Assembly: GCF_003019035.1 (NCBI RefSeq)
Contig: NZ_CP027447.1
Length of the DNA: 64,000 bases
From: Escherichia coli
Lineage (GTDB): Bacteria > Pseudomonadota > Gammaproteobacteria > Enterobacterales > Enterobacteriaceae
Direction: 5' to 3' (one strand)
Shown: piece after piece, positions 13,011 through 13,550 of the stretch
Position numbering within the stretch: the first letter of the stretch is position 1
Layout: each line of letters starts with the position of its first letter
The notes under the pieces: model-generated
What the model was told of the DNA's origin: nothing
What the model saw: the letters and a program-made list of their open reading frames with translations, nothing else
Databases searched by the model: none
Translations under genes and position numbers: made by a program

Positions 13011-13080
13011 GAAACCTCGTGCGGTGATTGTTTTTTTGATCTACGCAGTGATGCGTGTGTAAGTTTGCAATTCCGTTTGT

Positions 13081-13098
13081 TGTATTAATTTGTTTACA
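13081..13098. promoter_or_regulatory. Candidate TyrR box in aroP promoter region
   Basis: TGTATT-aatttg-TTTACA, 10/12 match to TGTAAA-N6-TTTACA; location consistent with aroP upstream region. Confidence 0.35.
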
Positions 13099-13502
13099 TC
13101 AAAGAAGTTTGAATTGTTACAAAAAGACTTCCGTCAGATCAAGAATAATGGTATGTGACAGCGAATGCACCCGCTTTATGCATGGTTGAAGATGAGTTGC
13201 TTAAAAAGAAACCGTTTGTAAAGCTCAGCCTCAACCCCTCTCAATATGCAGAATGAATTTAAATTCGTTTTAATTGAATTAAAAATCACAAAATTGGTAA
13301 GTGAATCGGTTCAATTCGGATTTTTATAGTTTAATAATCGTTAAAAAATCCCTTTCCTACGTAAAGTCTACATTTGTGCATAGTTACAACTTTGAAACGT
13401 TATATATGTCAAGTTGTTAAAATGTGCACAGTTTCATGATTTCAATCAAAACCTGTATGGACATAAGGTGAATACTTTGTTACTTTAGCGTCACAGACAT
13501 GA

Positions 13503-13519
13503 AATTGGTAAGACCAATT
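13503..13519. promoter_or_regulatory. PdhR operator (autoregulatory site at pdhR promoter)
   Basis: Perfect palindrome AATTGGTaagACCAATT located about 30 bp upstream of the pdhR start. Confidence 0.85.
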
Positions 13520-13550
13520 GACTTCGGCAAGTGGCTTAAGACAGGAACTC

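Follow-up and report, generated by a model that had tools for sequence, protein, structure and literature searches.

The aroP-pdhR spacer of Escherichia coli is very probably a known divergent control region built of two conserved modules and a drifting linker

The spacer between aroP and pdhR of E. coli is, with a probability of roughly 93%, the already known and well-studied divergent control region of the two genes, organised as two conserved modules connected by a drifting linker. It was analysed within a stretch of 64,000 nucleotides of E. coli DNA (the window), to which all positions refer unless another sequence is named. Motif positions, their statistics and the cross-species conservation were computed here, and protein binding and the direction of regulation were taken from the literature. 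Possibly new leads might be limited to the conservation of length and helical phase and to two conserved sequence blocks, A and B.

The spacer comprises 540 bp (13011 to 13550; coordinates from direct reading and the list of open reading frames). It is flanked on the minus strand by aroP (11637 to 13010), a 457-aa ORF encoding the aromatic amino acid:H+ symporter according to the RefSeq annotation of 100% and 99% identical E. coli DNA. On the plus strand it is followed by pdhR (13551 to 14315, ORF and RefSeq annotation), the first gene of the operon pdhR-aceEF-lpd; the ORF list gives a TTG at 13518 for this gene, upstream of the annotated ATG at 13551. Positions 12900 to 13700 are 100% identical to E. 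coli SCU-301, and 12911 to 13650 are 99.05% identical to K-12 MG1655. The GC content of the spacer is 0.346 compared to 0.513 for the whole 64-kb window, with a minimum of 0.305 in 200-bp windows, and the first-pass annotation, which had described 540 bp of AT-rich DNA between divergent aroP and pdhR, was exact in this respect. Its suggestion that the region might hold additional promoters was likewise correct and is already documented, both by the aroP promoters P1, P2 and P3 described below and by the catalogue of "promoter islands" of E. coli (Shavkunov/Ozoline, PMC3661553), in which the centre of the spacer (K-12 121694 plus 343 bp, corresponding to 13153 to 13495) is listed with H-NS association. 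Promoter islands are usually tied to foreign genes, whereas the layout of the aroP-pdhR island is deeply conserved across Enterobacteriaceae and core genes flank it.

In a PdhR-based scan, 80 loci from different species were obtained, and aroP was divergent from pdhR in 79 of them. The spacer measured 524 to 653 bp in 78 of these 79 species, Serratia included. For the conservation profile, 78 spacers were aligned and identity to the window was scored in 77, one Escherichia locus with more than 90% identity being omitted; the neutral baseline, taken from the 4-fold degenerate sites of pdhR, was an identity of 0.48. Conserved blocks reached 0.76 to 0.95, and three segments drift near the neutral rate (13031 to 13057, 0.43; 13099 to 13126, 0.37; 13222 to 13299, 0.41).

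The PdhR operator of the pdhR-aceEF-lpd promoter was reportedly described by Quail and Guest in 1995 and by Ogasawara in 2007. The 17-bp consensus palindrome AATTGGTnnnACCAATT with its core GGTnnnACC (PMC7660256, Anzai 2020) is matched at 14 of 14 positions by AATTGGTAAGACCAATT at 13503 to 13519, which is also the sole exact match to AATTGGTNNNACCAATT in the 64-kb window (0.00 expected in shuffled sequences). In K-12, the box at 122052, again a 14/14 match, lies under the strongest genomic SELEX (gSELEX) peak, located at aroP/pdhR (PMC7660256). The perfect palindrome that had been picked out next to the pdhR start in the first-pass annotation is thus the published operator; sequence and position relative to the published transcription start are identical, the locus is the same and only the strain is another one. 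Nothing of substance differs, and what is added here is the invariance of the box in all 76 other enterobacterial species sampled. The published pdhR start site is an A located 58 nt upstream of the ATG within the promoter sequence GTATGGACATAAGGTGAATACTTTGTTACTTTAGCGTCA (PMC2759082), which matches 13455 to 13493, so that the start corresponds to 13493 and the PdhR box extends from +11 to +27. Such an overlap with the transcribed start region fits a repressor acting as a roadblock.

Upstream of this start, TGGACA (13458 to 13463) and TACTTT (13481 to 13486) were assigned here from the sequence as the putative -35 and -10 hexamers of the pdhR core promoter (13458 to 13493, plus strand). The -10 hexamer is kept in 76/76 species and the -35 hexamer in 74/76. 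A simple promoter scan of the spacer returned no consensus sigma-70 promoter, in keeping with the poor recognition elements ascribed to the pdhR promoter in the literature (PMC2759082). The adjacent upstream region (13361 to 13457, plus strand) is deeply conserved, with an identity of 0.79 and long invariant runs. It includes the FNR site ATGATTTCAATCAA (13436 to 13449), which matches at 9 of 10 positions in 75 of the 76 species. Its centre at 13442.5, equivalent to -50.5, coincides exactly with the published FNR site at -50.5, for which a ChIP-seq peak at K-12 121,987 (PMC3688515) and a ChIP-chip peak at K-12 121,966 (PMC1802558) are available. Two ArcA-bound regions upstream of pdhR have been described (PMC3798270), and both activation of the operon by CRP and its repression by Cra (for Cra: PMC5888115) were reported. 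In the invariant DNA from 13379 to 13434, an inverted repeat (CATAGTTACAACTT and AAGTTGTTAAAATG, 18 nt apart) and the palindrome AAAATGTGCACAGTTT were observed, each of which may be an ArcA or a CRP site. The 11-mer AAATTGGTAAG is repeated exactly, in direct orientation, at 13291 to 13301 and, 211 bp away, at 13502 to 13512. The former copy was considered as a second PdhR site and rejected; it is a lone half-site abutting the Cra-type box described below, and it probably arose by chance, since it is confined to Escherichia and a second half-site is absent.

A Cra (FruR)-type box, AGTGAATCGGTTCAAT, is located at 13300 to 13315, its centre about 185 bp upstream of the pdhR start. In the window, TGAAWCGNTTCA is matched exactly just once (0.10 expected), by the core TGAATCGGTTCA (13302 to 13313), which also agrees exactly with the palindromic core of the published Cra operator consensus gcTGAAtCGaTTCAgc (PMC5888115). 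In 73/76 species the box retains 10 or more of 11 positions, always at a distance of 199 to 202 bp from the PdhR box. We infer that 13302 to 13313 is a candidate Cra site. Cra is published to repress pdhR-aceEF-lpd by binding "downstream of two promoters" (PMC5888115), whereas the box found here is situated far upstream of the start; a second, weaker candidate (TGAATCGCCTCA, one mismatch) is found inside pdhR at 13706 to 13717. Taken with the published data, the pdhR module would operate as follows. RNA polymerase would start at 13493, PdhR bound to the palindrome at +11 to +27 would block its own operon until pyruvate releases it, and FNR at -50.5, together with ArcA, CRP and Cra, would impose redox and carbon-source control.

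The aroP promoters P1, P2 and P3 with their strong and weak TyrR boxes were reportedly characterised by Wang, Yang and Pittard in 1997-98 and by Pittard in 2005. P1 is the major aroP promoter, the weak P2 is located 21 bp downstream, and the divergent P3 overlaps P1 (PMC7142922). TyrR binds to the aroP-pdhR spacer at boxes downstream of P1 and upstream of P3, and both its binding and the regulation dependent on aromatic amino acids are published for K-12 and S. bongori (PMC7142922). A strong box is defined by at least 10 of 12 matches, with one arm containing an essential G and the other an essential C (PMC4374768). The sequence TGTATTAATTTGTTTACA at 13081 to 13098 has 10/12 matches to TGTAAA-N6-TTTACA, with the essential G at 13082 and C at 13097, and is the only match with two or fewer mismatches in the 64-kb window. 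The motif match alone is within chance, as 2.56 such matches are expected per window and at least one occurred in 92/100 shuffles; the box is supported by its position, by the adjoining weak box, by conservation across species and by the literature. Its essential G2 and C17 are kept in 76/76 species, while the box as a whole scores only 9/12 in most other genera. The TyrR-box-like TGTATT-N6-TTTACA noticed on the first reading near aroP consequently agrees with the published definition of a strong box and with the position given in the literature. The weak TyrR box, the FNR site, the Cra-type box and the island integration site treated below had been omitted there.

The published weak TyrR box probably corresponds to TGTAAGTTTGCAATTCCG (13058 to 13075), with 8/12 matches to the consensus and the essential G and C kept; this assignment is made here, and the location of the box close to aroP is in line with the deletion series published earlier (PMC7142922). 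G2 and C17 of this box are kept in 72/76 species. The starts of the weak and the strong box are 23 bp apart (22 to 23 bp in other species), equivalent to 2.1 to 2.2 helical turns, and the two are therefore roughly, not exactly, in phase. A conserved TGTAAA at 13216 to 13221 was considered as part of a third TyrR box and rejected, as a partner arm is absent at either side. At the aroP-proximal end, the end of the leader with the ribosome-binding region (13011 to 13030, minus strand) is conserved, with a mean identity of 0.79 across 77 species.

The core of the overlapping divergent promoters is found at 13142 to 13154. The published -10 sequence of P3, TGGTAT (PMC7142922), is present on the plus strand at 13149 to 13154, where it is unique. 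The adjoining AGAATA (13142 to 13147; TATTCT when read on the aroP strand) does not vary in the conservation profile and is the putative -10 hexamer of P1, which would place the P1 start near 13135. The window thus resembles the published aroP system in the strong box, in the P3 -10 sequence and in the arrangement of the boxes relative to P1 and P3; the coordinates of the weak box and of the P1 hexamer were deduced here. A difference lies in most other genera, in which the P3 -10 sequence is without its final T; TGGTAT is exact in only 12/76 species, the final T is replaced elsewhere and most species have TGGTAA. Together with the 9/12 score of the strong box in most genera, this indicates that the P3 mechanism may operate only in a few genera, among them Escherichia, Salmonella and Citrobacter. 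According to the published mechanism, TyrR on the strong and weak boxes recruits RNA polymerase to P3 and thereby shuts P1 (PMC7142922; PMC4374768). In the window, TyrR with an aromatic amino acid would bind at 13081 to 13098 and 13058 to 13075, downstream of the main promoter P1. TyrR at the strong box would recruit RNA polymerase to the overlapping P3 (-10 at 13149 to 13154), and the TyrR-RNA polymerase complex at P3 would shut off P1.

Two conserved blocks are located between the promoter core and the linker, upstream of the aroP promoters and downstream of P3. Block A, GAATGCACC(C/T)GCTTTATG (13163 to 13182), is nearly invariant in 25 aligned genera and lies at about -28 to -47 of the inferred P1 and at +2 to +21 of P3. 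Block B (TAAAAAGAAACCGTTTGTAAA, 13202 to 13222) is strongly conserved as well, and PAIusp-type insertions have their left boundary here. Strong conservation extends over the first 60 nt downstream of P3 (13163 to 13221), in which block A and nearly all of block B are situated; P3 fires toward pdhR, and a product of it is not known in strains without the island; furthermore, several spacer ORFs of 20 to 44 aa are present. These features would suit an unannotated small RNA or small protein gene hidden in the spacer, for instance on the "non-productive" P3 transcript, a reading which is nevertheless very improbable in view of the following results. An Rfam scan of the spacer gave no match at E<=1, and a terminator scan found no intrinsic terminator. 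RNAalifold applied to 13157 to 13230 in 25 genera returned about 0 kcal/mol and no covarying or compensatory pair on either strand. The spacer accordingly shows neither a promoter paired with a terminator, nor a covarying structure, nor an Rfam family as expected of a small regulatory RNA.

Coding potential was assessed for all 12 spacer ORFs by conservation, and none was convincing as a small protein gene. The ATG at 13182 is kept in 6/75 species, ORFs within 13055 to 13420 are each intact in at most 4/75, and indels in the linker are of plus or minus 1 and not multiples of 3. Two ORFs stay open across species, but they are situated in the nearly invariant DNA upstream of the pdhR start and are devoid of a codon-like substitution pattern; because this is almost invariant promoter DNA, their persistence does not speak independently for coding. 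At 13183 to 13200, an apparent 3-nt periodicity was rejected as a coding signal, the frame not being maintained and the ATG at 13182 being AGG in most species. Blocks A and B are hence neither structured as RNA nor coding. The first reading had raised a hidden small RNA without claiming one and had recognised no convincing small ORF or terminator-bounded small RNA by eye. This negative observation holds with respect to terminators, Rfam matches, conserved folds and ORFs, and the possibility raised alongside it gained no support from any of these analyses.

The linker (13222 to 13299) separates the aroP side from the Cra-type box and the pdhR module. Its sequence drifts neutrally while its length is constrained, and it contains the integration point of PAIusp, an islet which carries the genotoxin gene usp and imu1-3 and is published at this site in E. 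coli, S. bongori and S. salamae, with usp transcribed from P3 (PMC7142922). On the window, the island described by Rihtar et al. (2020, PMC7142922) would be positioned at about 13222 and usp read from P3; the window itself is free of the island and represents the empty-site allele. Among the E. coli genomes with a match to the region, 1,060 of 5,423 align only in two pieces and are PAIusp carriers; usp is present in 1,059 of 5,426 genomes, so that about 20% of complete E. coli genomes carry the islet. The islet is about 3.9 kb long and encodes Usp, an Hcp-pyocin-nuclease fusion annotated as tssD by PGAP, together with immunity genes. In E. coli NGF1 (locus L005, 40164 to 44037), a sensitive alignment revealed that the island was cleanly inserted into the linker, directly behind block B; the flanks have diverged, and the window is colinear with both of them. 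A replacement of 13181 to 13360 by the island, as first read from BLAST, was rejected on the basis of this alignment. NGF1 has kept the Cra-type box, which is situated on the right-hand side of the island, 202 bp from the PdhR box. In strain CFT073, an IS3-family element is located between the islet and pdhR.

Beyond the published description, the left junction was placed here immediately after block B, and a degenerate copy of block B (17/21) was found at the right end. PAIusp is published as lacking flanking repeats (PMC7142922). Block-B-like 21-mers are located at both ends of the island in NGF1 (L005, 40144 to 40164 and 44038 to 44058), each sharing 17/21 positions with the window and 15/21 with each other. 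The repeat search did not report these 21-mers, and no right-hand copy of block B is present in the Superficieibacter locus. The 21-mers may, weakly, hint at a target-site duplication in the form of att-like direct repeats. Positions 12911 to 13180 are 84.5% identical to the corresponding NGF1 sequence (L005, 39854 to 40122; PAIusp strains), compared to 99% on the pdhR side from 13361 on. The lower identity on the aroP side suggests that the island could have arrived by recombination together with a foreign aroP-side flank.

An insertion at the same point was also found in a genus absent from the published list. In Superficieibacter sp. 1612_C1 (locus L060, 5022 to 7000), the spacer has a length of 1,978 bp and a truncated Hcp-like insertion, a 195-aa ORF (MSDLVYLRIIGEKQGN...), directly follows block B; the Cra-type box is lost in this locus. 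In E. coli this chromosomal point holds an island in part of the strains and is vacant in the rest; the usp-like insertion at the same point in another genus, Superficieibacter, suggests a recurrent hot spot. The frequent occupation of this point, the classification of the region as an H-NS-associated promoter island (PMC3661553) and a GC content of about 0.31 could be taken to mean that the AT-rich spacer centre is itself a scar of horizontally acquired DNA, left by a PAIusp-like islet, and not ancestral regulatory DNA. There is only a very slim chance that this is so. The layout and a nearly equal length (524 to 653 bp) are shared by 78 of the 79 species with divergent aroP and pdhR, up to Serratia. 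The colinear alignment with both island flanks means that nothing is missing or left over. Unlike a decaying remnant, the linker is constant in length across genera.

The constancy of length applies to a larger part of the spacer. Between the weak TyrR box and the pdhR start (13058 to 13493), the window has 435 bp. This distance is 431 to 438 bp in 73 of 78 related loci, even though the sequence drifts at the neutral rate in about 40% of the stretch. In the same spacer, the aroP-proximal leader segment (13011 to 13057) is free to vary between 31 and 159 bp among species. The linker alone is 78 to 79 bp long in 66/76 species, the exceptions of at least 3 bp being +10, -11 and +61. Larger length changes in the constrained stretch comprise +10 in two related genomes, -11 in Shimwellia, and +10 and +61 in Serratia, where the net change of +73/74 corresponds to about 7.0 helical turns. 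That these large indels are close to whole turns suggests a rotational-phasing constraint between the modules, at a count of three or four independent events.

One possible explanation is that the aroP and pdhR modules are coupled via a loop or wrap which depends on the face of the helix and in which proteins such as Cra, ArcA, H-NS or TyrR take part, so that co-regulation would be achieved through geometry. A bidirectional coupling of aroP and pdhR by FNR was proposed earlier (PMC3974632). Against a geometric coupling, the large indels are few, 3.9 kb of inserted DNA between the modules is tolerated by about 20% of E. coli, and the Superficieibacter locus has lost the Cra box. Known local needs, for example the spacing between the TyrR boxes and P3, account for a part of the constraint, and no bridging protein has been identified. 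On balance, such a coupling appears unlikely, albeit clearly less so than a hidden gene or an island scar. A fixed rotational register of the modules, held by a higher-order protein-DNA structure perhaps involving the Cra-type box and blocks A and B, is likewise a tentative idea with rather low odds. If true, it would link aromatic amino acid uptake to pyruvate metabolism and would represent an architecture-level coupling of two divergent core promoters.

For E. coli, the analysis amounts to a re-identification of textbook regulatory sites of a model organism and shows that these operators are recognisable from raw sequence. The region controls the entry of pyruvate into the TCA cycle and the uptake of aromatic amino acids, and it is from the same P3 promoter that uropathogenic (B2) strains express the Usp genotoxin.
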